Origin: a virus
Taxonomy: Duplodnaviria; Heunggongvirae; Uroviricota; Caudoviricetes
DNA: 64,000 nt
Virus record (IMG/VR): IMGVR_UViG_2654587728_000014
Location: 1 to 64,000 of that record
Reading direction: 5' to 3' (one strand)
Part shown: one piece after another, positions 4,906 through 23,515 of the stretch
Position numbering within the stretch: the stretch's first letter is position 1
How the letters are laid out: each line of letters starts with the position of its first letter
Notes under the pieces: model-generated
Database searches by the model: none
What the model was told of the DNA's origin: nothing
Seen by the model: only the letters and a program-made list of their open reading frames with translations
Program-made: the position numbers and the translations under genes

Positions 4906-4940
4906 ATGGCATCCACGCGGCGTTTCATTATTTGAAAAAG
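4865..4940 (+). repeat. Mu-like right-end terminal repeat region (putative transposase-binding sites)
   Basis: TGAT-N9-GATAAATG terminal motif, repeated GCGATAAATG(C/G)CA, then GTTTCATTATTTGAAAAAG; same motif at 10682. Confidence 0.55.
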
Positions 4941-4942
4941 AA

Positions 4943-5515: not shown

Positions 5516-5569
5516 TAAAAATACTCCCTTTTGAGTGGTTAAAGTACTGAGATAATGTGGGGAGGATTT

Positions 5570-5597
5570 GAGAGATAAACGTTGGTTTGGGAGAAGG
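5570..5597. other. gix-like crossover site A (GAGATAAACGTTGGTTTGGGAGAAGG)
   Basis: matches gix/hix/cix consensus core AAACC-NN-GGTTT; inverted relative to site B at 7984-8011. Confidence 0.6.
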
Positions 5598-7056: not shown

Positions 7057-7057
7057 A

Positions 7058-7531
7058 TTAATACCCTACTGCAATATAAAAAACTGATTCACCAGCGTCC
7101 TGAGAACCTACCCCCGGAACGCCAGACCAGGTTTTGTTAATGAATGCAAAACTGGTATTACTCAGATCAGATGCTCTGTACATCGGGCTGAACATCCAGT
7201 AGTTGGCTCCATATGTTTGTCCGAAAACAATGCCATAGCACTGATTTGTAAATGGCGTAGAAAATAATTTTCCACCAGTACCAGCGATAGTCCCGAATCG
7301 CATCTGGAACCCATTCGGGAAATTAATTCCGCCTGCCGGTGAAGACCAGTAAGACATATCAGGTATTTGCCCAGCACTATTTCCCACGTTTTTTGTTGCA
7401 ACGGTTCCTAACCCAAGATTAGCTCTTGCGTCAGATTTATTTGTTAACTCATAAAGATTATTTGCCTTTTGAAGTGCTCCTATTATGCGTAAATCATCAC
7501 CAGCGGCAACGGTTCCGACTGTCGTGCCCAC
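7058..7531 (-). CDS. tail-fibre-associated protein (extra ORF in cassette)
   Basis: 157 aa, Gly/Asn/Ser-rich with NLGLG motif like fibre distal tips; sits between Sv' and U'. Confidence 0.5.
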   Translation of the reverse strand: MGTTVGTVAAGDDLRIIGALQKANNLYELTNKSDARANLGLGTVATKNVGNSAGQIPDMSYWSSPAGGINFPNGFQMRFGTIAGTGGKLFSTPFTNQCYGIVFGQTYGANYWMFSPMYRASDLSNTSFAFINKTWSGVPGVGSQDAGESVFYIAVGY

Positions 7532-7565
7532 ATCCCTTTTCGCCGCTTCTCCTAAACCAACGTTT

Positions 7566-8072
7566 CTATGCCGCCCTTACGATGTAATTAAACGCAATGT
7601 TACGGGGACGAATGGTCACATAATTAACCCCATCGCCTCGCGAAGGACCTGCAAATGAAAAACGGGAGAATCCAGGTTGGTTGTCAAGGATTTGGTCATA
7701 GTTATTGATTGAATGACCAGACCCAATGTCAAAATTACCTGCGTAATGAGAAAAACTTGTACCATCCTGCCGTGAAAGCAGATCGCGCCCTGTATCCACT
7801 TTTCGCCCGTCGTCCCATCCACGGATAAACTCACCGCGCAAATCGGGAAGACGGAGGGTCGGGTAGACTCTGGCCAGAACAGGATATTGTTCTTTTGTAA
7901 AGGCGCGCCCGTCGCACTTTAACCAGCCTGCTGGCGGTGTGGCAGTGGGCCACGGAACAGGTACACCAACGGGCAGCGCCGAGCCTTCCCCCAAACCAAC
8001 GTTTTCGTTTTTATCCCTACCTATACCAACTCTGTATTTTTCACGAAACAAAGAGGATGTTTTTTTATGCAA
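7566..8072 (-). CDS. tail-fibre variable C-terminal cassette (Sv' type), promoterless in this isomer
   Basis: LGEGSALPVGVPVPWPTATPPAGWLKCDGRAFTKEQYPVLARVYPTLRLPDLRGEFIRGWDDGRKVDTGR nearly identical to the H segment at 46275-46465. Confidence 0.8.
   Translation of the reverse strand: MHKKTSSLFREKYRVGIGRDKNENVGLGEGSALPVGVPVPWPTATPPAGWLKCDGRAFTKEQYPVLARVYPTLRLPDLRGEFIRGWDDGRKVDTGRDLLSRQDGTSFSHYAGNFDIGSGHSINNYDQILDNQPGFSRFSFAGPSRGDGVNYVTIRPRNIAFNYIVRAA
7984..8011. other. gix-like crossover site B (CCTTCCCCCAAACCAACGTTTTCGTT)
   Basis: about 21/26 identical to reverse complement of site A; lies just upstream of invertase 2. Confidence 0.6.
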
Positions 8073-8666
8073 ATTGGCTATATTCGTGTGTCAACAAATG
8101 ACCAGAACACGGATTTACAACGCAATGCACTGAACTGCGCAGGATGTGAACTGATTTTTGAAGATAAAATCAGCGGAACGAAATCAGCCAGACCGGGATT
8201 GAAAAAACTGCTCAGAACGCTATCAGAAGGAGATACGCTGGTTGTCTGGAAGCTGGACAGACTGGGCAGAAGTATGAAACACCTGATCACGCTTATTGAG
8301 GAATTGCGGGAAAAAGGTGTTAATTTCCGTAGTCTGACGGACAGCATTGACACATCAACACCCATGGGGCGTTTCTTTTTTCACGTCATGGGGGCTTTAG
8401 CCGAAATGGAACGTGAATTAATTGTAGAGCGTACACTGGCCGGGCTGGCAGCAGCACGCGCACAAGGACGCATTGGCGGACGTCGCCCGAAGTTGACAAA
8501 AGAACAACACGAGCAAATAGCGAGGCTGATTAAAAACGGTCATGACAGGAAACAACTGGCGATCATTTACGACATCGGCATATCGACGATTTATCGTTAT
8601 CACCCTGTAGGCGATATACAGGCTGAAGAAACAACCAGGCAGACTCAGGAAAATAAAAACCGCTAA
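8067..8666 (+). CDS. Gin/Hin/Pin-family serine DNA invertase (invertase 2)
   Basis: 199 aa MQIGYIRVSTNDQNTDLQRNAL...; paralog of invertase 1 in inverted orientation. Confidence 0.93.
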   Translation: MQIGYIRVSTNDQNTDLQRNALNCAGCELIFEDKISGTKSARPGLKKLLRTLSEGDTLVVWKLDRLGRSMKHLITLIEELREKGVNFRSLTDSIDTSTPMGRFFFHVMGALAEMERELIVERTLAGLAAARAQGRIGGRRPKLTKEQHEQIARLIKNGHDRKQLAIIYDIGISTIYRYHPVGDIQAEETTRQTQENKNR

Positions 8667-11864: not shown

Positions 11865-12084
11865 TCTGAATACCTCCCCATTCGATATGAATATTACGGG
11901 CAGCAATGACAGGGTCGTTATTCCACCATGCACCTGACATGTATTTTTCAACCTGTTCGCGTCCGGCAATAACACCAATTGTGATCCCCGGCCTGACGTT
12001 CTTAAAAAAGGCGCGGGCAAAAAGGTATCTGGCAGATATTCGGCAGGCTTTTAATTTCCGGCTTTTACCTGATAGCGTAATCAT
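11854..12084 (-). CDS. hypothetical protein
   Basis: 76 aa; GGAGG RBS; start overlaps upstream stop (ATGA coupling). Confidence 0.5.
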   Translation of the reverse strand: MITLSGKSRKLKACRISARYLFARAFFKNVRPGITIGVIAGREQVEKYMSGAWWNNDPVIAARNIHIEWGGIQNDY

Positions 12085-12764
12085 CTGGCCTCCAGTTTCT
12101 GTTGTTCCTGCCCACTGACCGGGCGGTGCAGTCTGACGTTCTGCCCTTCACGAAACCCCGCATAGCGCGAGGCGTCGCCATTGCGGCTTCTTCCCGGTTT
12201 ACGCGCCCTGGTGGTTTGCGTCTGCGGGTATTTATGTTCCAGCCACTGCTGCATCAGTTCACGCTCATCATCGGTCAGGGCAAAGGACTGTATTTCACTG
12301 ATAACGGCCAGCACCCAGCCTTCGGCAAACTGGTCTCCACGGCTGGTGCGGGTGGCGGTTTTTATTCTTTTGTTCTGTGCACTGATATACTGCTGACGCG
12401 CCTTTTTCAGCTGACGGGCCAGCACTTCCCAGGTGTATGCAGCCAGTGCCGCACGTTCCCGGTTGCCGTAGAACCCCACAGACGGATGCGTGCCGGGGTG
12501 AATGATGGAGTTAACACCAAATACCTCGCGGATGATGTTCATCAGGCCCAGCATGTAGCGCGGTGGACGGAGACTGCCTGTCGGCCAGTAGTGACTGATG
12601 GTTTCATCAATATCACTCATAGCAATGTCGGAATGTGTGATGCCGTGAACATCCATCAGTTTACGGGCTCGGCACAGTGCCAGAGCGGCCTCGTGCGGGT
12701 TGCCGGATGCGGCCAGCGCCAGCAACTTTTTCAGTTTCTCAATGTGTTTATTCTGGTCTGTCAT
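12081..12764 (-). CDS. hypothetical phage protein (DUF2786-like N-terminus)
   Basis: about 227 aa from MTDQNKHIEKLKKLLALAASGNPHEAALAL...; domain call from memory. Confidence 0.5.
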   Translation of the reverse strand: MTDQNKHIEKLKKLLALAASGNPHEAALALCRARKLMDVHGITHSDIAMSDIDETISHYWPTGSLRPPRYMLGLMNIIREVFGVNSIIHPGTHPSVGFYGNRERAALAAYTWEVLARQLKKARQQYISAQNKRIKTATRTSRGDQFAEGWVLAVISEIQSFALTDDERELMQQWLEHKYPQTQTTRARKPGRSRNGDASRYAGFREGQNVRLHRPVSGQEQQKLEAR

Positions 12765-12976
12765 TGTTCTGTATCTCCGGTATTTTTCTGCCGTTTCCAT
12801 GCCCGGACAGCGTCGGACAGCTCTTTCAGGCTGTATGCTGCTTTAAGCTTTTCCCATAACCACTGTGTTGTTATGTGCATCAGCAGGGCAGCCAGGGCTG
12901 CCCCCGCACTGAGGCATGTCGCCAGGCCAGTAAGAATCAGTATCCATGCGGTGATTTCCCTGAGTATGTCAGCCAT
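12761..12976 (-). CDS. small membrane protein
   Basis: 71 aa with one hydrophobic helix (ITAWILILTGLATCLSAGAALAALLM). Confidence 0.45.
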   Translation of the reverse strand: MADILREITAWILILTGLATCLSAGAALAALLMHITTQWLWEKLKAAYSLKELSDAVRAWKRQKNTGDTEQ

Positions 12977-12990
12977 TGAATGCCTCCCGG

Positions 12991-13287
12991 TTACTCGTTC
13001 GTGTAAATCACGCCCAGTCGTGCAGCCAGACGTTCCAGTTTTTTCTGTTTGTGGAAGTCAATCAGCCGGTCCATCCCCTGAAGGCGCAATTGCTCTGTCA
13101 TGATTTCCACGTCTGCCAGCTCTGCCGCGAGGTCGCTTTCGCTGCCCTGTCCGTTCAGATTGCGGGCAGCACTGGCCGCCAGTTCAGCGGCCTCTTCTGT
13201 CAGTTTCAGGGCCTGTGCGTCCGGCCCGAAACGCTGCAGGGCCAGACGGTAGAGGGCGGTGCGGGTGAGTATGGTGTTCCGTGTCAT
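12991..13287 (-). CDS. MazG-like nucleoside triphosphate pyrophosphohydrolase (putative)
   Basis: 98 aa with EEAAELAASA...AAELADV acidic helical motifs typical of small MazG/all-alpha NTP-PPases. Confidence 0.5.
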   Translation of the reverse strand: MTRNTILTRTALYRLALQRFGPDAQALKLTEEAAELAASAARNLNGQGSESDLAAELADVEIMTEQLRLQGMDRLIDFHKQKKLERLAARLGVIYTNE

Positions 13288-13296
13288 GCCGCGCCC

Positions 13297-13569
13297 TCAG
13301 TGCTTCCGGCTGACGGTGATGTGCAGGCCGCCTTCTGCAGTGGTTTCCATCCGGTACGGCACCTCATGCGCTGCCGTGTGGGTTAGTGTGTTCACCAGTA
13401 CCTGCAGGGCAGCCGCCTTTCCGTTGGTCGCCACAATGGCTTGAGCGGTCATGCTGATTAGCGCCGTCAGGACGTGCTTCACATCGGTGAGGTCGCGGCA
13501 TTCACACTCGTTGACATAGTGTTCAACAAGGGTTCGGGTGCGCTGTCGTGCTTCCTGTGGGGTAATCAT
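13297..13569 (-). CDS. hypothetical protein
   Basis: 90 aa ORF in early operon, coupled to neighbours. Confidence 0.45.
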   Translation of the reverse strand: MITPQEARQRTRTLVEHYVNECECRDLTDVKHVLTALISMTAQAIVATNGKAAALQVLVNTLTHTAAHEVPYRMETTAEGGLHITVSRKH

Positions 13570-13760
13570 TGCGAGTCCTCCCTGTCAGGGCGGGAGAATT
13601 CCATGACGGGCACGTCTGCCGAAAAATGCTGGCTGCAGTACGGGCAGACCAGGGTGACGCGTACCGCAGGGATGTGGTATTTACCGGACATCACGGCGAT
13701 GGCGCTGTGAAAACGCAGGGCTGTTATATCCCTCTCGCACTGAATACATTTAAATATCAT
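13566..13760 (-). CDS. zinc-ribbon protein (Com-like CxxC...CxxC)
   Basis: 64 aa MIFKCIQCERDI...VCPYCSQHF resembling Mu Com zinc finger. Confidence 0.5.
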   Translation of the reverse strand: MIFKCIQCERDITALRFHSAIAVMSGKYHIPAVRVTLVCPYCSQHFSADVPVMEFSRPDREDSQ

Positions 13761-13857
13761 GATTTAATTCTCCTCTGTTTCCGGCGTGCAGAAGCCCGCG
13801 GCGCTGACGTCGGAATAAAAAAGAAAATGTTTTTATTAAATAATTAACGTGGTGTGT

Positions 13858-14388
13858 TTACTGCACATCCTGCTCAAAAGGAATTATTGAAAAATCCTCA
13901 ATGTCGCTTTTAATGGAAATACCGGGAATATTTTTCACGGCCTCTTTTTCATTCAGGATAGCGTCTTTATTTATTTCCTCTTTTACACGAATAAAGCGCT
14001 CAAGCCCCAGACGTCTCAGCAGTTCAATGACATTATCCGCCCCGCGAATGCTGACTGACGGCGGACGGTTTCGCCACTGCACCTCGCCGGTGGTGAGGTT
14101 AGCGAACTTCACCTTCCCGTTGCCGGTCAGTTCATCACGGTGCGCCTCACACCATGTCTGGATACCGGACTGCAGTTCGGCCATGCGTTTTTTCAGGCTC
14201 TCGGTGAGCGGGGCATAACGTGCAGTGATGTCGCCAATGGTGTCATTCATTTCTGTTTCAGCCCTGACCAGTTCACGTTGCGCGTCACCAAGCAGTCTGA
14301 TTCCCTCAATGACCTCTTCGCGTGTCCCCGGCACCCAGAGTGCTGCTGCGGCTTTGATACGTTTTGCCCCTTTTGTACTTTTTGCCAT
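13858..14388 (-). CDS. gam: Gam-like host-nuclease inhibitor
   Basis: 176 aa; Mu Gam family by sequence and position downstream of B. Confidence 0.82.
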   Translation of the reverse strand: MAKSTKGAKRIKAAAALWVPGTREEVIEGIRLLGDAQRELVRAETEMNDTIGDITARYAPLTESLKKRMAELQSGIQTWCEAHRDELTGNGKVKFANLTTGEVQWRNRPPSVSIRGADNVIELLRRLGLERFIRVKEEINKDAILNEKEAVKNIPGISIKSDIEDFSIIPFEQDVQ

Positions 14389-14415
14389 ATTTTATGACTC
14401 CTCCTGTTGTGCTGA

Positions 14416-14685
14416 TTACCACAAAGATTCCGGCCACACGACGCGACAGCCGTGCAGTTCGAAAACGCCCTGACGGAAATGTCCCCTGTGGTCATGACCG
14501 GTATACAGATAACAGGCCTTTCCCTGCTCAAGCATGCGCATGCAATGCGCACTCCGGGAAACGCGGATGACAGGTTTGTTACCCCTGATGGTGATGCTTT
14601 GTACATCCGTGTTCGTCGCCTTAAGCGCCATAATGGCTGACTGCACTTTGCTGATTTGCTGGTTGATACCTGTGGTGGATTTCAT
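14416..14685 (-). CDS. hypothetical protein (occupies Mu kil position)
   Basis: 89 aa ORF between B and gam. Confidence 0.4.
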   Translation of the reverse strand: MKSTTGINQQISKVQSAIMALKATNTDVQSITIRGNKPVIRVSRSAHCMRMLEQGKACYLYTGHDHRGHFRQGVFELHGCRVVWPESLW

Positions 14686-14687
14686 TA

Positions 14688-15854
14688 TTAAACCCCTTTG
14701 ACAACGTCAGCGTTGACCTGTGGAACCCCGATTTCAGCGGCCAGATTCATGGCGGCTATTACCAGGTTACTGACGGCCAGCGGATACAGCAGGCTGACCA
14801 TATTTTTACGATGACTTCCCGGATTGCTCAGGCGGGCACGTATGGCATCCACTGCGCTGGCGTCCATAATGTCCGTCAGTTGTTTACCGGCCCGTTGCAG
14901 TTTGAACGTCAGAAACTCTTCAAGGTTATTGTCCAGAGGCAGAAGTTCGACCACCTCACAGCGCTGAACGACTTCACGGACTTCCATATTGCGTTCAGAC
15001 AGTTTTGTCGCCAGTTCCGGCTGGCCAATCAGCACGATGGACAGCAGTTTTTTGAAACCGGACTCCAGCTCAAAAAAGCGTTTGAGGTGTTTCAGTGTCG
15101 GAATGGGCAGACTGTGGGCCTCCTCAATCACCAGAACGTGGCTGAACCCCGCCTGGCTGCTGTCTTTCAGGACGCGATGCAACTGGCGAAAGCGGGCGTC
15201 CTGACTGCGTCTGATGCTTTCCAGTGGTGCGATGGTACTGATAATGGCTTCGGCAATCGCTGCTGCCTTCAGGGTTTTCCCTTTCACATCGTTGTCTTCC
15301 ATAGCGATGATGTATGGCTCGATAACAATTACCGGCGCATTCTCGCGGTTGATACGTTCAGTCAGGTCGCGGCGCAGCGTGGATTTACCCGCACCGGACT
15401 CACCGATGACGGCCATAAACCCACCATGACGGGCTGTCTGGTACAACGCCTCACGCACGTAGCGAATATCCGGGGTGGTGAACACATCATCAGAACCCTG
15501 CATGGCTTCGTCGGCGAACGGGTCACGGAAAAGACCAAACGCTTTTTTGGTTGCTGGAAATAACACCTGTTTTTTGAGTAACATATTCTCTTCCTCACTG
15601 AGGCTCGTTTTATCTGTGGTACCCGCTGTACGGGGCGTGGCCGCGCCCTGTACAGCATCAAAACTCTTCGTTGTATCAATCCCCTGACTTTCCAGCCAGG
15701 ACGCAAGACGCCGGCGCACTTCTCCGGGGCTGGTGCGGGGCCACGCGTTATGATTCACAATCTGGGCCAGCGTGGCCTCAGAAACATCGACAGCTCTCGC
15801 CACCACCGCCTGTGGAATACGGGCCTCTTTCAGTTGCTGCTTCAGTACCAGCAT
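14688..15854 (-). CDS. Mu B-like transposition ATPase
   Basis: Walker A AVIGESGAGKST, N-terminal HTH; probable start MLVLKQ after GGAGGG RBS; ORF track 14688..15893. Confidence 0.8.
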   Translation of the reverse strand: MLVLKQQLKEARIPQAVVARAVDVSEATLAQIVNHNAWPRTSPGEVRRRLASWLESQGIDTTKSFDAVQGAATPRTAGTTDKTSLSEEENMLLKKQVLFPATKKAFGLFRDPFADEAMQGSDDVFTTPDIRYVREALYQTARHGGFMAVIGESGAGKSTLRRDLTERINRENAPVIVIEPYIIAMEDNDVKGKTLKAAAIAEAIISTIAPLESIRRSQDARFRQLHRVLKDSSQAGFSHVLVIEEAHSLPIPTLKHLKRFFELESGFKKLLSIVLIGQPELATKLSERNMEVREVVQRCEVVELLPLDNNLEEFLTFKLQRAGKQLTDIMDASAVDAIRARLSNPGSHRKNMVSLLYPLAVSNLVIAAMNLAAEIGVPQVNADVVKGV

Positions 15855-15864
15855 GTTTCCCTCC

Positions 15865-17634
15865 TCAGTTGCCGTTAACAATGCTGATAACACTGCTGCG
15901 GGCCGGTGTGGTCAGCGTGGCCATGACTTCATCCAGTGCGGCTTCCGGTACGCCGTCCGGGTACTGTGCCGTTAACTGGCGGTAATGTTCCGGCGTCCAG
16001 GTAAGGCCGTCGGCGCTGAACTTATCGCGCAGGGCTTTCGCGGCCTCCACATGAGTCATGGGACGTTGTTCAGTGCGCGGCCCGCGTACGTCAGAGGCCT
16101 GACCACGCTTCGGCATATAGGCCGGAAGTGTGGTGTCGTCGATATGTTTATACGGGTCAAGCCGCCCGCCGAACGGCAGCGCCTTCGCCTTGCGTGCGGC
16201 GGCTGCATCTGCGGCGTTGTCTGTACCGGTAACCAGCGCTTCGGTTTCTTTTGCCGCCATCTGTGCCGGGGTTTCCGGCAGGGCTTTGTAACTTTCGCCA
16301 AATACCGCCGCGCCTTCAGCAAAGCCAAACTCGTTCTTTCTGACCTCTTCGACCAGGAAGAACGTCTCGTGGCCGTCCTCACCGGTCAGAACCACCTGTG
16401 CCACATCGCTGCGCCATGGGTTACGGGTAATCATCAGTTTTTCACCAACCAGTACGCCCGGTACCGTTGATACGTCAAATTCAGTGCCCCGGAACGAGAC
16501 ACGAAGTTTTGGCGTGACTTTGCGGAGTTCTGGTGCCGCCACAGCCAGTTCACGACATACCTCAACGGAAGGCGCTTTTTTCAGCTGCTCAGCAGTAATC
16601 TTCAGCCAGATATCCGTGCGGGTTTTACCGTGGCGGCTGTGAACAGCCGTGGCGTTAAAGTGGCTGCGCCATTTCGCGGCCAGCGCGTTGAGTTCTTCCA
16701 GACTGTGAACCGGCCGGAACTTCAGACCCGGCTCCAGCTTGCGTTCGATAATGTCACGCGCCTTTTCCACCTGTCCGGTGGCGCGGGCGTTATGCGGCTT
16801 GTGCGCTATCAGGTCGATGCCCAGTGAGCGGCACATGTTTTTCGTCATACCCGCGGTGTTTGCCGAGCCGGGGTCGAGATAGAGTATTTTCGGCACGCCG
16901 TGCAGCACGTCTGCGCCGCCACGCTCCTGCATGGCGTTGATAAGCACAGAACACAGGTTCTCACCTGATTCCGCGCCCGTCACATACTCAACGTAAATCC
17001 AGCCGCTGGCATGGTCGGTAATCTCGTAACTCCACACGCGGTCACTGGCGATACGGGCAAGGTTAGCGGGCTTGTTCTTGTAGAACTTCGCGCTGTCCAT
17101 CACCTGCAGCCCTTTATGTCCATTGCTCAGGTAGTAAAGCGTGCAGAGTGAGGCGTCAATCTGCCAGACATGATTGGGATGCAGACTGGCCACTTCGGTA
17201 TGTGGTGCAGGGGCATCCAGTTGTTCCGGGTGCAGGCCATAGTTACGCAGAGCACGGCTGATGGCATCTTCAGACAACGGGAAAAACTCACTGGTGGTTT
17301 CATCTGTTCTGCCTGCGGTGATAAAGCCGTTAGCCCGCAGGGTTTCCACTGCATCTGCGATGGAATAGAGACGCTTACCGTTCTTGCGGGTGGCCTCACG
17401 CAGTGTGGCAGATATCAGCGCGGCTTCGTCGCGGGTCAGGGCGCTGCGCCCGGCATCGGCGCGTTTTTTGCGTTTATCAGTCACAGATACCTCCTTCAGC
17501 CTGCGCAGCAGAGTGGCGCGGGACATGCCAAGTTCAGCACAGGCAGCGTCGTATATTGCACCGCGTTTACCATGCCCCGCGTCACGTGCCGCGCGGGCTG
17601 TTTCAACCAGTTTTTCAGTCAGTGCCGGGGTCAT
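15865..17634 (-). CDS. Mu-like DDE transposase (MuA family)
   Basis: 589 aa; large transposase immediately upstream of B-like ATPase; MuA-like N-terminal DNA-binding and core regions. Confidence 0.88.
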   Translation of the reverse strand: MTPALTEKLVETARAARDAGHGKRGAIYDAACAELGMSRATLLRRLKEVSVTDKRKKRADAGRSALTRDEAALISATLREATRKNGKRLYSIADAVETLRANGFITAGRTDETTSEFFPLSEDAISRALRNYGLHPEQLDAPAPHTEVASLHPNHVWQIDASLCTLYYLSNGHKGLQVMDSAKFYKNKPANLARIASDRVWSYEITDHASGWIYVEYVTGAESGENLCSVLINAMQERGGADVLHGVPKILYLDPGSANTAGMTKNMCRSLGIDLIAHKPHNARATGQVEKARDIIERKLEPGLKFRPVHSLEELNALAAKWRSHFNATAVHSRHGKTRTDIWLKITAEQLKKAPSVEVCRELAVAAPELRKVTPKLRVSFRGTEFDVSTVPGVLVGEKLMITRNPWRSDVAQVVLTGEDGHETFFLVEEVRKNEFGFAEGAAVFGESYKALPETPAQMAAKETEALVTGTDNAADAAAARKAKALPFGGRLDPYKHIDDTTLPAYMPKRGQASDVRGPRTEQRPMTHVEAAKALRDKFSADGLTWTPEHYRQLTAQYPDGVPEAALDEVMATLTTPARSSVISIVNGN

Positions 17635-17649
17635 AGCTTGTCTTCCCTG

Positions 17650-17967
17650 TTATCCGATTCTGGCGGCAATTTTTCTGGCGAGGTCGCACAGTGTTTCGCC
17701 ATCGCAGGTTTTCACCACGGTATTTACCGGTTGCGGTGCAACTACCGGGCGTAATGCTGACTGATTCTGCAGACGTCTTATCTGCTGCATCAGCATCACC
17801 TCCATCGTCAGTACAAACGGGTGCGTCTCCTGTGCGGGTACGCAGATTTCACCGGAAGGGGTCACCACGCGGAAACCCTGCACCATCTCCGGCAGCAGAT
17901 TACACAGTGCGTGCCCCAGTGCCTCCGGGCTGTCCATCAGGGTATTTTGTGTGTTATTCGTATTCAT
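17650..17967 (-). CDS. hypothetical protein
   Basis: 105 aa ORF in early operon. Confidence 0.45.
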   Translation of the reverse strand: MNTNNTQNTLMDSPEALGHALCNLLPEMVQGFRVVTPSGEICVPAQETHPFVLTMEVMLMQQIRRLQNQSALRPVVAPQPVNTVVKTCDGETLCDLARKIAARIG

Positions 17968-18887
17968 TACTGCATATCCTCCGGTCGGTTGATTTCAGGT
18001 TCCGGTTCGGTCAGCCAGGCGGGGGCATCGTTACCCGATGGAGCGGCCTCAAGGTCAAACGTCTCACGTAATGCATGAACACTGCGTTCAATCTGGCAGA
18101 CCAGACCGGCCATGAAATCTCTGGGGGTATCGATCATGTTTTTGGTGCAGTATTCACACAGGGTCTCAAAAACACTGGACAGCCGGACGGCGATAGCCGA
18201 TTCGGCCTCAACCGCTAATGCCGTCACTTCCGCCCGCAATTTTTTCAGTTCTTCGTCTGGCGGCGGAGGTTGCAGGCGCGATTTCTTCTCCAGTTTTGTG
18301 GCCAGTTCGTTGATTTTTTCGTCCTTTCCGGCAAGCACCTGTTGCTGAGCTGCGTTGGTTTCGCGCGCTTCACGCAGGGCGGCCTTCAGTTCGCGGCTGG
18401 TCATGCGATCAATATCATCAAGCGTTGCACCGGCGACGGTTCCACCATCAGCTAATGCGTCGAGTTCTTCGTCATCCAGAACCATCAGTTCATATAACTT
18501 GGTTTTTCCCAAAACGCTCAGCGCTGAGCGTTTTGGCTGTTCATCTCCATTGCCGAGAAATTTCACGCTGGCCTGCATCATGCGACGAGCTACCTGTGGT
18601 GCTAATCCGAGGTCGTTTTCCAGAATATTTGTGAAATCACCATGCGGTTCATTTTCTTTTAAGATGATCAGCCGCTTACCCGCTTCCAACATAGATTCAG
18701 CACTCTGCGCCATATAAAAACGTGCTTCGTGAACGATGCGTTCACGTTCATAAGGCAGTCCATCACCAAACTGCTGCATGATCTCCATGCGATGCTGTGT
18801 CATGGCATTCAGGCTGACGTTGAGATCATCCGACAGCGGTACATCGGCGTTCAGTTCAGTGTTAATCGGTGATTTGGTACGTCCCAT
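17967..18887 (-). CDS. hypothetical protein (DUF3102-like)
   Basis: 306 aa, acidic and coiled-coil rich; domain call from memory. Confidence 0.45.
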   Translation of the reverse strand: MGRTKSPINTELNADVPLSDDLNVSLNAMTQHRMEIMQQFGDGLPYERERIVHEARFYMAQSAESMLEAGKRLIILKENEPHGDFTNILENDLGLAPQVARRMMQASVKFLGNGDEQPKRSALSVLGKTKLYELMVLDDEELDALADGGTVAGATLDDIDRMTSRELKAALREARETNAAQQQVLAGKDEKINELATKLEKKSRLQPPPPDEELKKLRAEVTALAVEAESAIAVRLSSVFETLCEYCTKNMIDTPRDFMAGLVCQIERSVHALRETFDLEAAPSGNDAPAWLTEPEPEINRPEDMQ

Positions 18888-18897: not shown

Positions 18898-19212
18898 TTA
18901 CAAACGACTACCTGAAATGACACGTTGGTTAATTTCGTTAATACGATCCTGTGCACGTGCCATCTCGTTACTGTGGGCCATGGCGATCTGCAGTAACTGG
19001 ATGCCCGGTGCAAAACGTCCGTTCTCCAGTTTCAGAGCCAGCCCTTCTTCAATGAGGGTGTTGAGTGCCCGGTTGATGTTTGCCGGTGACTCGTGCAGTG
19101 CTGTCGCCAGTTCACCGTTAGAAATACCGTTCAGGGCATGACCGCGCAGCGCTTTGAGTACCCGGAGGATGCGACTGCCGGAGCTTGAAACATTCGTCTT
19201 ACTCATCTGCAT
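18898..19212 (-). CDS. HTH DNA-binding protein
   Basis: 104 aa with winged-helix-like segment ISNGELATALHESPANINRALNTLIEEGLA. Confidence 0.5.
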   Translation of the reverse strand: MQMSKTNVSSSGSRILRVLKALRGHALNGISNGELATALHESPANINRALNTLIEEGLALKLENGRFAPGIQLLQIAMAHSNEMARAQDRINEINQRVISGSRL

Positions 19213-19258
19213 ACCTCTTTTGCGATATGTGATAACCTTTTACAAAGACTCAAAATAT

Positions 19259-19447
19259 TTAGGCCGCCTGAGCTGTTGATTTCAGTCCCAACTTCACGGC
19301 GATTTCATGGGATTTACCGTAACGGGCTTTGGTCTGCCCGTTGAGAACGCGGTATACCTCATTGCGGTTGTAGCCGTTTTCTTCTGCCCAGCGGGTGAAA
19401 GTGATCCCGCGCTGGCGGAAGAGAGCTTTGACTTGTTCTGCAGTCAT
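19259..19447 (-). CDS. ner: Ner-like DNA-binding regulator
   Basis: 62 aa; pattern FRQRGITFTRWAEENGYN...GKSHEIAVKLGL parallels the Ner/Nlp family; divergent from repressor gene. Confidence 0.65.
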   Translation of the reverse strand: MTAEQVKALFRQRGITFTRWAEENGYNRNEVYRVLNGQTKARYGKSHEIAVKLGLKSTAQAA

Positions 19448-19499
19448 CGTTGTCTCCTTTGTTGATGCAATGATGTTTGCCTTATATGTGTTAGATTAT

Positions 19500-19547
19500 T
19501 GCTCATAATTATGAGCATATCAAGATAGAGATTCACTTTTATGAGCA
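19500..19547. promoter_or_regulatory. operator region: perfect palindrome TGCTCATAATTATGAGCA plus extra TTATGAGCA half-site over the repressor start codon
   Basis: seen directly in the ner/repressor divergent intergenic region. Confidence 0.5.
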
Positions 19548-19897
19548 AAGATATAGGAGAGCGCGTTATTTCTGTGAGGAAGAAAGCAGGGTTGAACCAG
19601 AGAGAATTTGCAGCTCGTTTAGGTATTTCTAATGGTGGTATCAGTCAGATTGAAAATGGAAAGGCGATGCCTGGAGGGGAGTTTCTGTTAAAGATGCATC
19701 AAGAGTTTAATGTTGATGTAAATTGGTTGCTCACTGGAATGAGCACAGATGGTATGACTAGAAACCAGAATCAAATTTCCCCAGAAAAACAAAAACTAAT
19801 AGATACTTTTGACGACATGACACCAGACCAACAACGCTCATTTCTTGAGATTGGGCGATTCTATACTCAGCCAAAACCAGGAAAAATCGCAGGCTGA
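19541..19897 (+). CDS. XRE-family HTH repressor (Mu c-like)
   Basis: 118 aa; HTH QREFAARLGISNGGISQIENGK; divergent from ner-transposase operon. Confidence 0.8.
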   Translation: MSKDIGERVISVRKKAGLNQREFAARLGISNGGISQIENGKAMPGGEFLLKMHQEFNVDVNWLLTGMSTDGMTRNQNQISPEKQKLIDTFDDMTPDQQRSFLEIGRFYTQPKPGKIAG

Positions 19898-19983
19898 TAC
19901 TGACCCGGACACAAAGGACAGGTGGTTGATCTGGATGCTTTCAGAAAACATCGCCAGTGACATAGTGGAAGTTGTTTGGTTTA

Positions 19984-20014
19984 CCGGAAAGCATTGTGCT
20001 TTCCGGTTTTGTTT
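19984..20014 (+). terminator. rho-independent terminator after repressor gene
   Basis: hairpin CCGGAAAGCA-TTGT-GCTTTCCGG followed by TTTTGTTT. Confidence 0.6.
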
Positions 20015-20778
20015 CAGAAGTTGCAGATTAGCAGTTCACGGCGCGGCGTGGGTTTACCCGCCAGACTGTAGTTGATATTCACTGTCTGTATGTTCAGTCC
20101 AGTGAACACCTCGCGCATCTGCGGGATGTCGTTCACCGAAATTATCATTTTTCCTCTGATGCACCGGGCCAGCTCTGCCAGCCGCGAGTAGTTCCCTTCA
20201 GGAAAATCCACACCATAGCCTTCCGTACCCAGGTACGGTGGGTCGCAGTAGAACAGCGTGTGCGGACGATCATAACGCTCAATGCACTGTTGCCAGTCCA
20301 TGTGTTCTATGACTGTTCTGGAAAGCCGCAGGTGTGCCGCTGACAGTTCTTCTTCAATACGTAGCAGGTTGAAGCGTGGCGGGGATGTGGTGGAGGTACC
20401 GAAGCTGTGCTCTGCCACCTTGCCGCCAAACGCCTGCTTCTGAAGGTAGTAGAACCGTGCCGCACGCTGGATATCCGTCAGTGTTTCTTCCGGGGTGATC
20501 TGCAGCCATTTGTAGATCTGACGGCTGACCAGCGCCCATTTGAACTGGCGGACAAATTCTTCCAGGTGATGCTTTACCACCCGGTACAGATTCACCAGTT
20601 CACCGTTGATATCATTGATGACTTCGATCTTGCCGGGTGTCTTAAGAAAATAGAGCGCTGCTGCCCCACAAAACGGCTCCACATAACATTCATGCGCCGG
20701 AAACAGCGGCAGAATGTGTTTTGCAAGGCGGCGTTTGCCACCAATCCACGGCACGATGGGTAATGTCTGCATTTTCAT
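20014..20778 (-). CDS. dam: DNA adenine methyltransferase (Dam-like, orphan)
   Basis: about 254 aa; IVPWIGGKRRLAKHILPLFP... and DPPY motif (FYCDPPYLGTEGYG). Confidence 0.85.
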   Translation of the reverse strand: MKMQTLPIVPWIGGKRRLAKHILPLFPAHECYVEPFCGAAALYFLKTPGKIEVINDINGELVNLYRVVKHHLEEFVRQFKWALVSRQIYKWLQITPEETLTDIQRAARFYYLQKQAFGGKVAEHSFGTSTTSPPRFNLLRIEEELSAAHLRLSRTVIEHMDWQQCIERYDRPHTLFYCDPPYLGTEGYGVDFPEGNYSRLAELARCIRGKMIISVNDIPQMREVFTGLNIQTVNINYSLAGKPTPRRELLICNF

Positions 20779-20968
20779 AATCTGCAAGCCTTTTACAATT
20801 ATTAAAAAATATGGCAGTCTGGTCAGGTCTCGCGAGACTGACTGAACCTTGGTCGGCTCACAGCGCATTCCTGTGGGGCGATGACCAGCCCGGCTTTCGG
20901 GTGCCGGGCTGGTCGTTCTTTCATGATGCGGCAGGGATGGCGGGATTTCTGTTAATGTGGTTTAGGGA

Positions 20969-21184
20969 TTATCCGGGGCGATTTTCTGACCTTATCCGGT
21001 CCAGGGCATAAGTAATACCTTCTGCAAAAACAGAAGTATCAAACTGCTTTTGTATTCCCTGAAAATGAAAAGCGGCACGACAGACACTCAGTTCTCCGCG
21101 GTATAACCGGATAATATCTTCCAGAACATTGTTCACTGCTTCAGCACGGCGCTGATGTTCTGTTAACGTTAATCGGGGATTCAT
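20969..21184 (-). CDS. hypothetical protein
   Basis: 71 aa with strong AAGGAG RBS 6 nt upstream of ATG. Confidence 0.45.
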   Translation of the reverse strand: MNPRLTLTEHQRRAEAVNNVLEDIIRLYRGELSVCRAAFHFQGIQKQFDTSVFAEGITYALDRIRSENRPG

Positions 21185-21587
21185 GATGCACTCCTTAAAT
21201 GATGATTTTTATGTACTCACCGGCAAAATATTCTGCCGATTACTGAACACGCATCCGGCACCTCAGGTTTTGATTTATTCTGGTTTTTTCGATATCCCGG
21301 ACCAGGTTGATCACGACCAGAAAAAGTGCCGGTGTTTTATTGATACGCTGATATGGCTTCGGGATAACAGCTATATTCGTTACTCTCAGTTGCTGGCTGT
21401 GGGAGCGGCTGATGTCGTCCTCACGGAAAAAACGCTCTGTCTGCTCAATGCCATGCCGACCTTTCTGCAGCCCCGGCCCGTACCATTTAAAGAGTCACTT
21501 CTGGATGCAGTAAAAACCGGTGAAAATGCAGTCATCGCTGAATGCGTATCCCGGATTATGCGTTACGTGTTTAATGAACGTAAGTGA
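21183..21587 (+). CDS. hypothetical protein
   Basis: 134 aa; start codon overlaps the divergent 71-aa ORF start; weak GGGGA RBS. Confidence 0.35.
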   Translation: MMHSLNDDFYVLTGKIFCRLLNTHPAPQVLIYSGFFDIPDQVDHDQKKCRCFIDTLIWLRDNSYIRYSQLLAVGAADVVLTEKTLCLLNAMPTFLQPRPVPFKESLLDAVKTGENAVIAECVSRIMRYVFNERK

Positions 21588-22291
21588 GGTTTATCCGCTG
21601 TCTGCATAATCCCGATAGCCAGTGCGAGGGGAAGTAATTCCGGGGAAACTCTTTCAAACAGCGATGCCCATTCTCCTCTCGCCATCACTCTGTCCAGCCC
21701 GCCCTCCAGTTGCATTTCAGCAATCTTCCTGATTTCCCGGAACAACGCCGCTTTGATCTCTTCATGCTCAGCTTTATTTTCCGGTGTCAGAAGGTATTCG
21801 TCGAAGAACCGGGGAGGCTGGTTAATCGGGATGTGTTCCTGTTTGCCGTACTTCGGGGACGAACAACATTCTGTTGACTGACCAGTGAGTTTACGTAACT
21901 CCTTCATGAGCAGCTCCTGATCGTAAACTGTCATCAGTGCCGCAATGGTGGCATGCAGTGCATCGGGCAGTATCCAGGGTTGCCGGCCCGTGGGGCATAT
22001 AACATCCAGCAGCTCATTCGTCCGACAGATACGCTCCTCGCCGTATGACAACAGGCCCTGTCCCGTGTATTCCTCCAGCCTGATCACTGTGCCAGCCCGT
22101 GGTTTCTGCCATGTGCTCAGATCATCCCCACTCATACGGCGCTCACCGTCCACGTCTGCGGCGTCGACAATGACGCTGTTTCCGAATTCCTGTTTCACCA
22201 CTTCCTCTATTCGCGCCAGTACGTAACTTTTACCGCTGCCCACAGGACCGGACACGGTGACAGTGATGACCGGATTCAGTGTCTGCGTCAT
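21563..22291 (-). CDS. P-loop NTPase of unknown function
   Basis: 242 aa; N-terminal Walker A VSGPVGSGKSYVL; no recognisable second domain. Confidence 0.55.
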   Translation of the reverse strand: MTQTLNPVITVTVSGPVGSGKSYVLARIEEVVKQEFGNSVIVDAADVDGERRMSGDDLSTWQKPRAGTVIRLEEYTGQGLLSYGEERICRTNELLDVICPTGRQPWILPDALHATIAALMTVYDQELLMKELRKLTGQSTECCSSPKYGKQEHIPINQPPRFFDEYLLTPENKAEHEEIKAALFREIRKIAEMQLEGGLDRVMARGEWASLFERVSPELLPLALAIGIMQTADKPHLRSLNT

Positions 22292-22421
22292 ATCGTATTC
22301 TCCTCTGTGAATAATTCATCGTTTATCCTGCACATCCCGTATCCCCGGCTCTCTTAACGCGCTTTAAAATCCTTCGCGCCCTGTATTTGTGATGCTGTCT
22401 CCACCAGATAAGGAGACACAC

Positions 22422-22772
22422 ATGAAAAAACTGAAAAAATTCATTCCCCCTGTTAAAAAACCTCGCCTCAGCGGCTGGCTGCTGACCTCAGTGCTGTTGC
22501 TGGGCACCATCGCTCTGGTCTCACCACAGCAGCTGCCTGTTGTGATCTACAAGCTGGCACTCATCACGCTGGCAGCAGTGCTGGGTTACTGGCTTGACCG
22601 TTCGCTCTTCCCCAAAGCCCGTCCCGGTCAGTACCTGAAACATGACGACAGGCTGATGGCTGAAGGGCGTTTCCCGGTACAGACCGGCCTTCACCTGGTG
22701 TTTTCTGCTGCGTTAATCCGCCGTGCACTGATTGTTGCAGCGGTCTGCCTGGCTGTTGCGATGGGGCTTTAA
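22422..22772 (+). CDS. membrane protein at head of lysis cassette (possible holin)
   Basis: 116 aa from MKKLKKF after AAGGAG RBS; two hydrophobic segments. Confidence 0.45.
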   Translation: MKKLKKFIPPVKKPRLSGWLLTSVLLLGTIALVSPQQLPVVIYKLALITLAAVLGYWLDRSLFPKARPGQYLKHDDRLMAEGRFPVQTGLHLVFSAALIRRALIVAAVCLAVAMGL

Positions 22773-22774
22773 TC

Positions 22775-23515
22775 ATGAACTGGCCGCAGATCACCTGGAT
22801 TGTATGCATGTCCCTGAAACTGGCTTTCGAAGCCTTTCGGGTCTTCATCAGAACCGAACGCCTGTCAGTCCGCGCCGGGACCTTTCTGGTTCATATGGCA
22901 TGGGTATTCTTTGTCGCAATGTTGCTCTGGTGTGGCGGCTTTTTCAGCCAGGCATGCGCAGCACAACCTCCGCAGGCTGCGCTGCAGTATCGCGATGATG
23001 TGATCCGTAATGCCCGGCTTGAATGGGGACTGTCTGCGCCGGTGGCCGATTTCGCCGCGCAACTGCATCAGGAAAGCGGCTGGCGACCTGATGCGATCTC
23101 GCCGGCTGGCGCTCAGGGACTGGCGCAGTTCATGCCTGCCACTGCCGACTGGATAAGCCAGTTGATACCGATGCTGAGCAGTCGTGAGCCGTTTAATCCG
23201 GCATGGGCTATCCGGGCGCTGGTCAGCTATGACCGCTGGCTGTGGCAGCGTGTCAGCGCCGCCAGTGACTGCGAGCGTATGGCCATGACACTGTCGGGCT
23301 ATAACGGTGGTCTGGGCTGGGTACAACGGGACAGGCGGCTTGCATCACAGAAAGGTCTGGACAGCACCCGCTGGTTCGGACATGTCGCCACGGTGAATGC
23401 CGGACGCAATGCGGCCAGCTGGCGGGAGAACCGCCATTATCCGCAGCGCATCCTGCGCGAACTGGCACCGCGATATCTCACATGGGGAGGCAGCAGTTGT
23501 GTGGCATCTGGTTAA
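22775..23515 (+). CDS. lytic transglycosylase endolysin with N-terminal signal-anchor
   Basis: 246 aa; SLT motif ESGWRP...GAQGLAQFMP; hydrophobic N-terminus. Confidence 0.8.
   Translation: MNWPQITWIVCMSLKLAFEAFRVFIRTERLSVRAGTFLVHMAWVFFVAMLLWCGGFFSQACAAQPPQAALQYRDDVIRNARLEWGLSAPVADFAAQLHQESGWRPDAISPAGAQGLAQFMPATADWISQLIPMLSSREPFNPAWAIRALVSYDRWLWQRVSAASDCERMAMTLSGYNGGLGWVQRDRRLASQKGLDSTRWFGHVATVNAGRNAASWRENRHYPQRILRELAPRYLTWGGSSCVASG

Follow-up and report, generated by a model that had tools for sequence, protein, structure and literature searches.

A candidate two-layer block of dam, a structured RNA and cargo genes at the immunity/late junction of a BcepMu-like prophage

Comparative analysis of the accessory block between the repressor and lysis genes of the window (the whole 64,000-nt stretch of DNA analysed) points to a two-layer organization at the immunity/late junction of a BcepMu-like transposable prophage, in which a conserved dam gene and its adjoining structured RNA are accompanied by a three-gene cassette carried as cargo; we give this reading a probability of roughly 0.5. 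In the proposed mechanism, the first, lineage-conserved layer would comprise dam and a divergent RNA of ~100 nt, whose predicted promoter overlies the dam leader and whose terminator faces the late genes. The dam product would be a lytic-phase modification function marking or protecting progeny DNA, in a role comparable to that of Mu mom, and the RNA would restrain dam in the lysogen. The core of the second layer would be a winged-helix DNA-binding protein, whose gene lies antisense inside a leftward unit, together with a small helical protein encoded immediately downstream on the leftward strand. A bolder proposal, made tentatively and at somewhat less than even odds, is that the RNA represents a new phage regulatory RNA family tied to an orphan Dam-family methylase (acting as a brake by antisense pairing or interference, or else as a cofactor for specificity or timing), and the 71-aa/134-aa pair an unrecognised, self-contained switch or exclusion cassette moving between the hotspots of unrelated temperate phages.

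Gene layout and the cargo slot

The features of the region, with the four protein-coding genes of the block as called by PGAP, are the following.

19541-19897, + strand: HTH_3 repressor gene, left neighbour of the block
19983-20007, + strand: intrinsic terminator (11-bp stem, T-run) downstream of the repressor gene; the block begins here
20014-20778, - strand: dam, 254 aa (WP_000783854)
20792-20820, + strand: predicted sigma-70-like promoter of the RNA, over dam leader DNA, conserved in relatives' alignments
20821-20923, + strand: structured RNA of ~100 nt, divergent from dam and ~45 nt from the dam start codon
20947-20970, unstranded: degenerate copy of the late-promoter dyad (repeat D1), left junction of the cassette
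20969-21184, - strand: 71-aa gene (s), small helical protein
21183-21587, + strand: 134-aa gene (w; WP_000972294), winged-helix protein
21563-22291, - strand: 242-aa gene (WP_000194951), mosaic protein
21587-21769, - strand: C module of the 242-aa protein (aa ~175-235), homologous to an 89-aa stand-alone Serratia protein
21884-21994, - strand: M module of the 242-aa protein (aa ~100-136)
22064-22291, - strand: N module of the 242-aa protein, mini P-loop (aa 1-76; GPVGSGKS; conserved W61 and E74)
22292-22421, unstranded: divergent control region (alignment A6, seven relatives including BcepMu), right edge of the block
From 22422, + strand: holin/SLT/spanin/terminase block, right neighbour

The four ORFs recognised in a sequence-only reading of this DNA stand at the same coordinates, and PGAP makes identical calls in 100%-identical prophages (ST131 EC958 Phi2 and phage PhiKM). 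They are more than chance ORFs, since each matches a full-length PHROG family, a Serratia prophage has the same gene order with proteins 31-83% identical, and comparison with diverged E. coli copies gave dN/dS values of 0.04-0.09 (dam), 0.2-0.3 (134-aa gene), 0.15-0.6 (segments of the 242-aa gene) and 0.35-0.6 (71-aa gene). A longer dam ORF reaching 20868 was rejected, as all relatives start at the position equivalent to 20778. The prophage was present in 635 of 5426 complete E. coli genomes (~12%), ST131 clade C (EC958 Phi2) included, and the three-gene cassette in ~470 of them; this is a widely carried prophage whose cargo is widespread yet uncharacterised, and literature searches on the protein accessions, locus tags and PhiKM gave nothing beyond ST131 papers.

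Mu had been taken as the reference map, but the phage is BcepMu-like (Bcepmuvirus), with early genes inverted relative to the late genes, and not Mu proper. The statement that these genes have no Mu counterpart at this position was borne out and extends to BcepMu; likewise, the genes do run mostly against the late genes (three of four). In BcepMu (NC_005882), the same interval, from the Cro/CI-type repressor gp17 to the holin gp21, holds gp18-gp20, which are unrelated and all on the late strand, and this phage has neither dam nor a match to the RNA model.

The interval between repressor and holin is, as had been supposed, a true hypervariable cargo slot of BcepMu-like phages. At least six distinct gene contents were found there among relatives, with differences among the window type, N21, C7, 8178, KP12, Serratia and BcepMu; another variant of the slot holds an NA37 protein and a protein weakly similar to KwaA. 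Cargo lies directly past the RNA terminator and before the late promoter, and here consists of the 1.4-kb three-gene cassette. The distance from RNA to holin is variable, from 176 to ~2500 nt, whereas that from dam to the RNA motif is constant (~70 nt). Moreover, dS is 0.26-0.46 for dam and 0.01-0.14 for the cassette, a contrast which indicates separate histories. The definition of the insertion site by the RNA terminator and the late promoter provides a handle for cargo mining in BcepMu-like phages, as for P2 and P4.

At the right border, the control region contains the 242-aa gene's conserved leader and Shine-Dalgarno (SD) sequence, the dyad TTAACGCGCTTTAAAA (22354-22369) and a -10-like GATGCT (22391-96); the holin ATG (22422) is preceded by a hairpin that sequesters the SD. 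The stretch 22292-22421 is a probable Mor/C-dependent late promoter, the activator being assigned because a Mor-family gene ends the early operon. At the left junction, D1 aligns with the true late-promoter region of cassette-less prophages. The direct repeats D1 and D7, which flank the 71-aa gene, were rejected as a feature since each is within chance expectation, and D1 is meaningful solely via its late-promoter alignment.

The methylase and its adjoining RNA

By its sequence, the dam product is an orphan Dam-family (D12 class) N6-adenine DNA methyltransferase. It is identical to M.EcoMIV of the EC958 prophage Phi2, passes PF02086 (E=8.7e-29; 101.4 bits, cutoff 22) and lies barely over the cutoff of TIGR00571 (116.6 bits, cutoff 114.85), and phrog_56 and PADLOC MTase_II both match it. 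The DPPY catalytic motif is present (FYCDPPYLG) and aligns with those of DpnM and EcoDam. Indeed, the D12 signature, the DPPY motif and the nuclease-free setting are shared with E. coli and phage Dam enzymes and DpnM (T4, P1, Stx-phage Dam; PDB 2g1p, 2dpm), although HMMER E-values against the solved Dam and DpnM structures are just 1e-14 to 1e-17. The earlier remark that there is no nuclease partner was correct: the neighbours encode the repressor and the 71-aa, 134-aa and 242-aa proteins, with zero nuclease domains by Pfam, PADLOC and NCBIfam.

The GATC specificity suggested for this enzyme is doubtful. The EcoDam equivalog model NF008152 fails (67 bits, cutoff 441), and the EcoDam residues which we take to be its GATC contacts (N120, L122 and R124; 2g1p) align to non-identical residues in the phage methylase; furthermore, REBASE and the literature report no recognition site for homologues >65% identical to it. 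Epigenetic control in the lysogen, another earlier suggestion, is a poor fit with the low transcription in EC958, where M.EcoMIV is transcribed far under the host dam and no methylation motif was assignable to it. Nor does dam behave as swappable cargo, being retained in most enterobacterial relatives together with the linked RNA.

This RNA, which the sequence-only reading had missed, is a conserved structured element within the 190-nt gap between dam and the 71-aa gene. It comprises a P0 hairpin, a P1 closing helix, a P2 hairpin and a P3 hairpin that is rich in GC and runs into a U-rich tail; the P2 core (GGUYGRCUCACAG-N7-CUGUG) is invariant, which is partly circular because the search pattern itself fixed this core. 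P3 and the tail form an intrinsic terminator, with a 12-bp stem (20883-20914) followed by GUUCUUUC on the + strand, and the opposite (-) strand of the stem carries no U-run. The alignment also has strand-specific G-U pairs, and RNAalifold gave -42.9 kcal/mol for the + strand versus -18.5 kcal/mol for the - strand. Compensatory changes were seen in 22 of 36 pairs, with 94.7% of cells paired; slid controls gave 34-56%, and none of 500 shuffles attained the observed value on any of five measures. The single-sequence fold had -54.7 kcal/mol (z=-4.3). The RNA is previously unannotated, with no Rfam 15 match at E<=1 (19000-23000, both strands, permissive filters), and its covariance model scored 98 bits in the window and 58-109 bits in the genomes of ~43 species.

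The predicted promoter of the RNA consists of a -35 TTTACA (20792-97), a 17-nt spacer and a -10 CAGTCT (20815-20), 14 nt from the dam start. Both elements are conserved in most relatives, with a spacer of 16-17 nt and TAGGCT as the usual -10; in the window the -10 is weak, and Photorhabdus copies have no A at its position 2.

For the spread of the RNA, a genome-wide pattern scan with 16 fixed bases covered 596 Gb and gave mostly chance matches, as expected at this size; true matches were separated by the covariance model. On viral contigs there were ~84 true matches, and where the contig extends far enough almost all have a divergent dam homologue (55-100% identity) ~70 nt off the motif. Besides Enterobacterales, the RNA and a divergent Dam N-terminus recur in Desulfuromonas, Ideonella and a Nitrospirae MAG, so that the pair ranges over Enterobacterales, Desulfuromonadales, Burkholderiales and a Nitrospirae MAG. 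The RNA can nevertheless outlast an intact dam, as L032 has no dam and L063 a remnant only. A pairing of P0 with the holin leader hairpin was considered and dropped, since the two do not covary in Serratia.

The reading we favour is that the RNA would hold down a methylase of the lytic phase, with the expression timing and the antisense control inferred from the arrangement. The dam transcript would start right of the RNA promoter and therefore be antisense to the RNA, a layout that allows both antisense pairing and promoter interference. If true, a conserved RNA partner of a phage methyltransferase would be a new control mode for epigenetic or anti-restriction enzymes, and such restraint could explain the motif-less M.EcoMIV-type enzymes in lysogen methylomes.

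In this context, Mu com-mom is a late DNA-modification module of a transposable phage, silent in the lysogen and under dedicated post-transcriptional or promoter-level control. The present block resembles it in the transposable phage, the modification gene that borders the late genes and is little transcribed in the lysogen, and the dedicated control (predicted here), but it carries a Dam-family methyltransferase instead of Mom, its candidate controller is a structured RNA and not the Com zinc-finger protein, and its place is between repressor and lysis genes, whereas com-mom is found at the genome's right end. A Com-like role of the 71-aa protein was rejected, as it has no Com-like Cys motifs (zinc-finger cysteines) and no modification gene follows its P2-like homologues. 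Known phage parallels for the RNA are the cis-antisense and small RNAs lambda OOP, P22 sar and P1/P7 c4. The likeness is to a short, predicted promoter-to-terminator RNA opposite or overlapping the leader of a gene kept off in the lysogen; unlike these, the RNA described here has no sequence or structure match in Rfam (C4 included), presents a four-helix architecture with a three-way junction, has a DNA methyltransferase as partner and is known from sequence alone.

A simpler role, which we consider possible but rather unlikely, is that of an insulating terminator blocking rightward, repressor-side transcription into the lysis genes, or of a late-operon leader and terminator that needs an antiterminator, in the style of lambda PR'-6S-tR'. 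The 3' helix and U-tract are a textbook + strand terminator aimed at the holin operon, in the minimal arrangement the RNA is just ~100 nt upstream of the holin ATG, and in the dam-less L032 the stop codon of a + strand repressor-operon gene comes directly before it. However, for a plain terminator the three extra conserved helices, the invariant P2 and the conserved promoter-like site are superfluous. The spacing of the RNA is fixed to dam and >10-fold variable to holin, and in the window 1.4 kb of mostly opposing genes separates it from the late promoter; in distant phyla, it still adjoins dam with no holin homologue detectable nearby.

The cassette proteins

The 71-aa and 134-aa genes constitute a portable head-to-head pair, a relationship missed earlier. 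Their start codons overlap (CATG), the strong SD of the 71-aa gene (AAGGAG) is located within the 134-aa gene, and the latter, the sole + strand gene of the block, is antisense amid - strand genes, with its 3' end overlapping the 242-aa gene by 25 nt. HMM and structure-based searches had been proposed for the 134-aa and 242-aa proteins. For the 134-aa protein these yielded a winged-helix fold; its family had no significant match among PDB sequence profiles, and a BFVD fold search with the model gave nothing under E=0.007. DUF2513, the UniRef name of the Serratia homologue, was discarded, since none of 40 family members matches the Pfam model at E<=1. The 71-aa protein matches phrog_4490 over its full length and has a Serratia orthologue (31% identity, E=5e-10). 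Word-indexed searches found close relatives only (those in E. coli and, for the 134-aa protein, one Serratia homologue), and with the 242-aa and 71-aa proteins as tblastn queries, PhiKM was the only phage record returned.

P2-like phages also have the pair (~30% identity), located between the portal gene and gpA. In all of these contexts a small ORF, 60-64 aa long, is placed and oriented like the 71-aa gene; the 71-aa-type proteins of BcepMu-like and P2-like phages are just ~20% identical, so their homology rests mainly on position. In every context examined, the 134-aa gene has its strand to itself and the small gene is encoded on the opposite one, immediately downstream. Where natural prophages have lost the 134-aa gene by precise deletion, the 242-aa and 71-aa genes are neighbours in one orientation. 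A type II toxin-antitoxin pair was rejected, as the genes are divergent with overlapping starts and the 134-aa gene is lost while the 71-aa and 242-aa genes stay. No LexA box was detected in or near the block, which leaves SOS control of the pair unsupported, and a consensus scan gave no convincing sigma-70 promoter for it (5 sites versus 3.9 expected in shuffled sequence).

The 242-aa protein, which matches phrog_3787, had been called a P-loop NTPase. The Walker A motif stands (GPVGSGKS, aa 15-22), but no NTPase family reaches threshold and the motif belongs to a 75-aa module only; HMM and sequence searches resolved a three-module mosaic in place of a complete NTPase domain. Pfam AAA_30 scored 16.5 bits (cutoff 27), and PDB profile matches extend over ~35 residues only (strand 1, P-loop and helix 1). 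Family members share the G and GK of Walker A, although some have GKN; E74, at the end of predicted strand 3, is invariant, and D43, after strand 2, is variable. In phmmer searches of 1.8 billion representatives, just aa 1-76 are widely shared, as stand-alone proteins of 72-100 aa or with differing C-termini, and the C module matches the Serratia protein Ser89 (E=1e-10). Shortened variants, internally deleted or truncated, are common (182, 158 and 141 aa). The AF2 model had a pLDDT of 44 (shallow alignment, 11 sequences) and for this reason was unused in the fold search. The protein probably binds phosphate or a nucleotide and is unlikely to be a conventional NTPase.

Possible roles of the cassette

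For the cassette we favour an autonomous unit of regulation or exclusion, with a proposed switch logic. The winged-helix gene would be on when leftward transcription is off, and leftward (lytic) read-through would silence it and allow expression of the small partner. The defence or anti-defence cargo proposed earlier found no counterpart in known families, and such a role stays guilt by association because no protein matches one. In PADLOC, Pfam and NCBIfam nothing was above threshold for the cassette proteins. With PADLOC-DB 2.0, the 71-aa and 134-aa proteins and the P2-type homologues were matchless, the 242-aa protein had only P-loop noise at E>0.002, and the methylase matched generic MTase models only.

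The P2 gpA-gpQ (tin/old) and P4 hotspots carry antiviral cargo (Rousset et al. 2022, PMC9122126). Like the slot in the window, they are fixed temperate-phage sites with conserved borders at which unrelated cassettes are swapped, and the P2 hotspot contains the homologues of the 71-aa/134-aa pair, beside retron (type VI), Tmn, SoFic-like Fic protein and NsnB/AriA-like ATPase systems. In contrast, the present phage is transposable and BcepMu-like, its anchors are the RNA terminator and the late promoter and not cos, gpA or gpQ, and the window has no validated defence system. The two-gene pair, shared between the hotspots of two phage families that are unrelated, is a clear candidate for experiment.

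One improbable alternative is an anti-phage exclusion system active in the lysogen, with the winged helix as sensor or repressor and the 242-aa or 71-aa protein as effector or self-immunity factor. The hypervariable slot, the P2 homologues adjoining validated kinds of defence system, the NA37 and KwaA-like proteins in the other slot variant and the frequency of the cassette in E. coli would agree with it; against it, the cassette proteins and their P2-type homologues have no PADLOC match, no nuclease, membrane, NADase or other effector-like domain was found in the former, two of three cassette genes run opposite to the repressor-type (lysogenic) direction with no promoters found, and natural variants are missing the winged-helix gene.

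Equally improbable, in our view, is an anti-defence or host-takeover function during lytic growth, in which the 242-aa protein would be a 'polyvalent' inhibitor fusion whose mini P-loop may bind or sequester a nucleotide signal. The leftward genes begin beside the putative late-promoter dyad with a conserved leader, the 242-aa modules are shuffled, with stand-alone versions in early or lysis-proximal regions of unrelated phages, and conservation of the Walker A loop is not accompanied by a full NTPase core. Nonetheless, no similarity to characterised anti-defence proteins was found, the 242-aa model is of low confidence, and the common shortened variants suggest weak constraint on the whole protein.

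Routine Mu-like regulation or morphogenesis by all four genes, the case against an accessory block foreseen in the sequence-only reading, is very improbable: dam and the RNA are indeed conserved in most enterobacterial BcepMu-like phages, but BcepMu and several E. coli relatives have none of the three cassette genes, and some no dam, while retaining the early and late modules, and the four proteins match no morphogenesis or Mu regulatory family. Finally, the mini P-loop module is a natural Walker-A domain of ~75 aa, of interest for minimal nucleotide-binding folds.

The prophage and its accessory slot

The prophage extends over about 10.7-46.5 kb of the window and is 99.3% identical to the prophage located between aroA and ycaL in EC958 (ST131); the two copies occupy different chromosomal sites, as expected of a transposable phage. 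Its early genes, leftward from ~19.5 kb, include those for a BcepMu gp16-like protein, an IclR-type HTH protein, a DUF3102 protein and the DDE transposase; rightward from 22.4 kb follow the late genes, among them those for holin, SLT endolysin, spanin and terminase. Region 19200-22800 shows 100% identity to Escherichia phage PhiKM (Bcepmuvirus); of 5426 complete E. coli genomes, 635 match it, and in 470 of these the match covers at least 80% of the region. Beyond the early end of the prophage, segments within 4865-8611 are 84-96% identical to the invertase/tail-fibre end of the EC958 prophage region, and may be part of a second phage-derived element or remnant.

The features discussed here are as follows:

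19983-20007, perfect 11-bp hairpin and T-run, candidate terminator
20014-20778, minus strand, dam-family methyltransferase gene (dam)
20821-20923, plus strand, predicted structured RNA of ~100 nt
20969-21184, minus strand, 71-aa gene
21183-21587, plus strand, 134-aa gene (winged-helix protein)
21563-22291, minus strand, 242-aa gene
22354-22421, probable late promoter upstream of the holin gene

PGAP calls exactly the four protein-coding genes that the sequence-only reading had listed, confirming them, and PHROG matches are full-length for all of them, to families of unknown function except for that of the methyltransferase. Purifying selection on the four genes is evident from their dN/dS values (dam, 0.04-0.09; 134-aa gene, 0.2-0.3; segments of the 242-aa gene, 0.15-0.6; 71-aa gene, 0.35-0.6). 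No known defence or anti-defence family could be assigned to any of the four proteins.

The sequence-only reading had taken these genes for an accessory block between repressor and lysis genes, and comparison with relatives bears this out: the repressor-to-holin interval is a genuine cargo hotspot with internal structure, and its gene content differs between related phages and prophages.

Table. Gene content of the repressor-to-holin slot in relatives
BcepMu: gp18-20
Klebsiella phage KP12: 177-aa protein, dam, DUF2441 protein
E. coli N21 (locus L061, 237-2452): NA37 (YejK-like) nucleoid-associated protein, 401-aa protein, dam
E. coli C7: two membrane proteins within the repressor operon, shortened 242-aa gene, no dam
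E. coli 8178: DUF2441 protein, dam remnant only
Serratia: dam, 73-aa gene, 139-aa gene, 89-aa gene

The N21 cargo of NA37 and 401-aa proteins may be a Kiwa-like variant, since the latter shows weak C-terminal similarity to PADLOC KwaA (E=8e-5). Among ~84 viral contigs carrying the RNA, 176 to ~2500 nt separate it from the holin gene, while dam and the RNA motif stay ~70 nt apart, which argues that new genes enter downstream of the RNA terminator and short of the late promoter. The stretch from the repressor to the dam 3' end forms a second variable interval. At the left junction of the cassette formed by the 71-aa, 134-aa and 242-aa genes, the late-promoter dyad region recurs at 20947-20970 in degenerate form. 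Furthermore, two loci (L021, at 7383-8052, and L150) carry a second winged-helix paralogue, 27% identical, between the 71-aa gene and dam, bordered by a duplicated dam 5' remnant, and a Photorhabdus locus (L166, around 2500) carries a further paralogue in the repressor-dam interval. The extra paralogues and the duplicated remnant suggest that cassettes are taken up through recombination at the conserved 5' part of dam.

Upstream of the holin gene, a functional-looking dyad, TTAACGCGCTTTAAAA (22354-22369; consensus TTAA(A/C)GCnCTTTAAAA, followed by GATGCT), is conserved out to BcepMu itself, and a predicted hairpin (GTCTCC, 22398-22403; GGAGAC, 22412-22417) would sequester the holin Shine-Dalgarno (SD) sequence. 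We take 22354-22421 as probably the late promoter, under Mor/C control and equipped with a translational lock. In Klebsiella phage KP12 (L010, ~4740-4790), a conserved leftward start codon and SD resembling those of the 242-aa gene lie beside this dyad; no leftward gene is annotated there.

The methyltransferase and the predicted RNA beside it

The methyltransferase is a D12/Dam-family protein with a DPPY motif, scoring above the PF02086 threshold and barely above that of TIGR00571, and it is an orphan, as had been proposed, since domain and PADLOC searches revealed no nuclease partner. The GATC specificity implied by its name is doubtful: the protein does not pass the EcoDam equivalog model (67 bits vs cutoff 441), and EcoDam residues N120, L122 and R124, which we take to be the GATC-contacting ones, are not conserved in the HMMER alignment, so that "Dam" is here a family name. 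An identical protein (WP_000783854) is the sole adenine methylase of the EC958 copy of the prophage and is thus equated with M.EcoMIV (EC958_1101, prophage Phi2), which had no assignable methylation motif, no recognition site known for homologues above 65% identity, and transcription in LB far under that of host dam (Forde et al., PMC4659465). Over the early operon, which includes the transposase, transposition ATPase and gam genes, a stretch of 6149 bp (11983-18132) has no GATC at all, against a window mean of 2.56 sites per kb and a second-largest gap of 2486 bp; GATC-free regions in EC958 mobile elements have been remarked previously (Forde et al., PMC4659465).

Across E. coli, Klebsiella, Serratia, and remoter relatives, the 190 nt that separate dam from the 71-aa gene are better conserved than the genes on either side. 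The plus strand of this gap, divergent from dam, is predicted to fold into four helices, namely the hairpins P0, P2 and P3, the last of them GC-rich, and a closing helix, P1, with a consensus folding energy of -42.9 kcal/mol vs -18.5 for the minus strand; the copy in the window folds at -54.7 kcal/mol (z=-4.3). P2 is near-invariant in sequence, its core having been fixed by the pattern with which sequences were collected, which left P0, P1 and P3 free, and compensatory double changes occur at 22 of 36 pairs among 48 distinct sequences. One-sided changes from G-U to G-C or A-U are numerous and tolerable only on the plus strand. Paired cells reached 94.7%, against 83.4% in shuffles and 34-56% in slid controls, and none of 500 shuffles equalled the observed value on any of five measures.

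Rfam 15 returned no match to the RNA at E<=1. A covariance model built from the alignment found the element in ~43 species genomes, mostly of Enterobacterales (Pantoea, Erwinia, Mixta, Brenneria, Serratia, Photorhabdus, Arsenophonus, Symbiopectobacterium, Citrobacter, and Salmonella diarizonae), and beyond this order in Desulfuromonas, Geobacteraceae, Ideonella, and a Nitrospirae MAG; in Desulfuromonas, Ideonella and the MAG a divergent Dam N-terminus directly adjoins it. Two exceptions were found: in L032 (6892-6997) the RNA lies directly 3' of a plus-strand lipoprotein gene of the repressor operon, with no dam, and in L063 (4056-4158) it lies beside a dam 5' stub only. With strong comparative support, wide distribution and no Rfam family, this predicted dam-linked RNA appears to be new.

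In most relatives, P0 is preceded by a putative promoter (-35 TTTNCA, 16-17-nt spacer, -10 TAGGCT, the latter CAGTCT in the window), whose -35 is just 14 nt from the dam start codon. Since this promoter overlies the dam leader, the dam mRNA must start further right and would be complementary to the RNA. We suggest that, in the lysogen, a constitutive small RNA would hold down leaky dam expression by pairing and promoter occlusion, consistent with the low M.EcoMIV transcription reported. In lytic growth, strong leftward transcription would override this brake: the leftward genes start next to the putative Mor/C-type dyad, and their SD and leader are conserved; on the minus strand, P3 has no U-run. 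The main rival is that the element, whose U-rich tail directly follows P3, chiefly protects the lysis genes as a terminator/insulator or as an antitermination leader; the additional conserved helices, and a spacing fixed to dam and loose to the holin gene, speak against a plain terminator, however.

At the other end of dam, the hairpin at 19983-20007, 3' of the repressor gene and abutting the dam 3' end, is predicted to be the terminator of rightward transcription. Its leftward strand has no T-run, so leftward dam transcripts could enter the repressor gene antisense.

The portable gene pair and the mosaic 242-aa protein

The 71-aa and 134-aa genes overlap head-to-head at their start codons (CATG, 21182-21185), each with its SD located within the partner. 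Homologues of the 134-aa protein (~30% identity, 142-145 aa) occur in P2-like phages and prophages of Salmonella, Klebsiella, Escherichia, Serratia, and other hosts, and in every P2-like context examined a 60-64-aa ORF lies head-to-head with them, between replication gene A and the portal gene. This interval is the P2 defence hotspot (Rousset et al., 2022; PMC9122126). There, PADLOC identified as neighbours of the pair a type VI retron (RT E=5e-104, HTH E=4e-31), Tmn (E=2e-147), a SoFic/PDC-S04 Fic protein, and an NsnB/AriA-like ATPase; the pair itself had no PADLOC match in these P2-type contexts. The recognition of these two small ORFs as a portable pair that also occurs in the P2 defence hotspot is new, and we infer a switch-like or exclusion cassette, in which the winged-helix gene would be on when leftward transcription is off, and vice versa.

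In some natural E. coli prophages the 134-aa gene is precisely deleted, leaving the 242-aa and 71-aa genes adjacent, which supports a leftward unit of these two genes, possibly with dam. An essential antitoxin role for the 134-aa gene is excluded by the same deletions.

The 242-aa protein had been described as a P-loop NTPase; its Walker A motif stands, but an NTPase assignment claims more than the data support, because likeness to real NTPases is confined to strand 1, the P-loop and helix 1, and no family model scores above threshold. Structure prediction gave no usable model. A phmmer search against 1.8 billion protein representatives found wide sharing of residues 1-76 only; these conserve G-x-GK[ST], W61 and E74, and their homologues either stand alone, as 72-100-aa proteins of unrelated phage contigs, or are fused to varied C-termini. 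The middle (~aa 100-136) and C (~aa 175-235) modules recur separately in other mosaics, the 89-aa Serratia gene being the C module alone, and alleles shortened by truncation or internal deletion (182, 158 and 141 aa) are common. The protein is thus best read, from its sequence, as three small phage modules joined together, the N-terminal one a mini-domain that carries the Walker A motif. Mini P-loop-only proteins (ITVTVSGPVGCGKSA...W...E) were observed in viral contigs L036, L038-L040, L042, L043, L047 and L048; the PHROG families matching them are all of unknown function, and their genes sit in early-gene arrays or near lysis genes.
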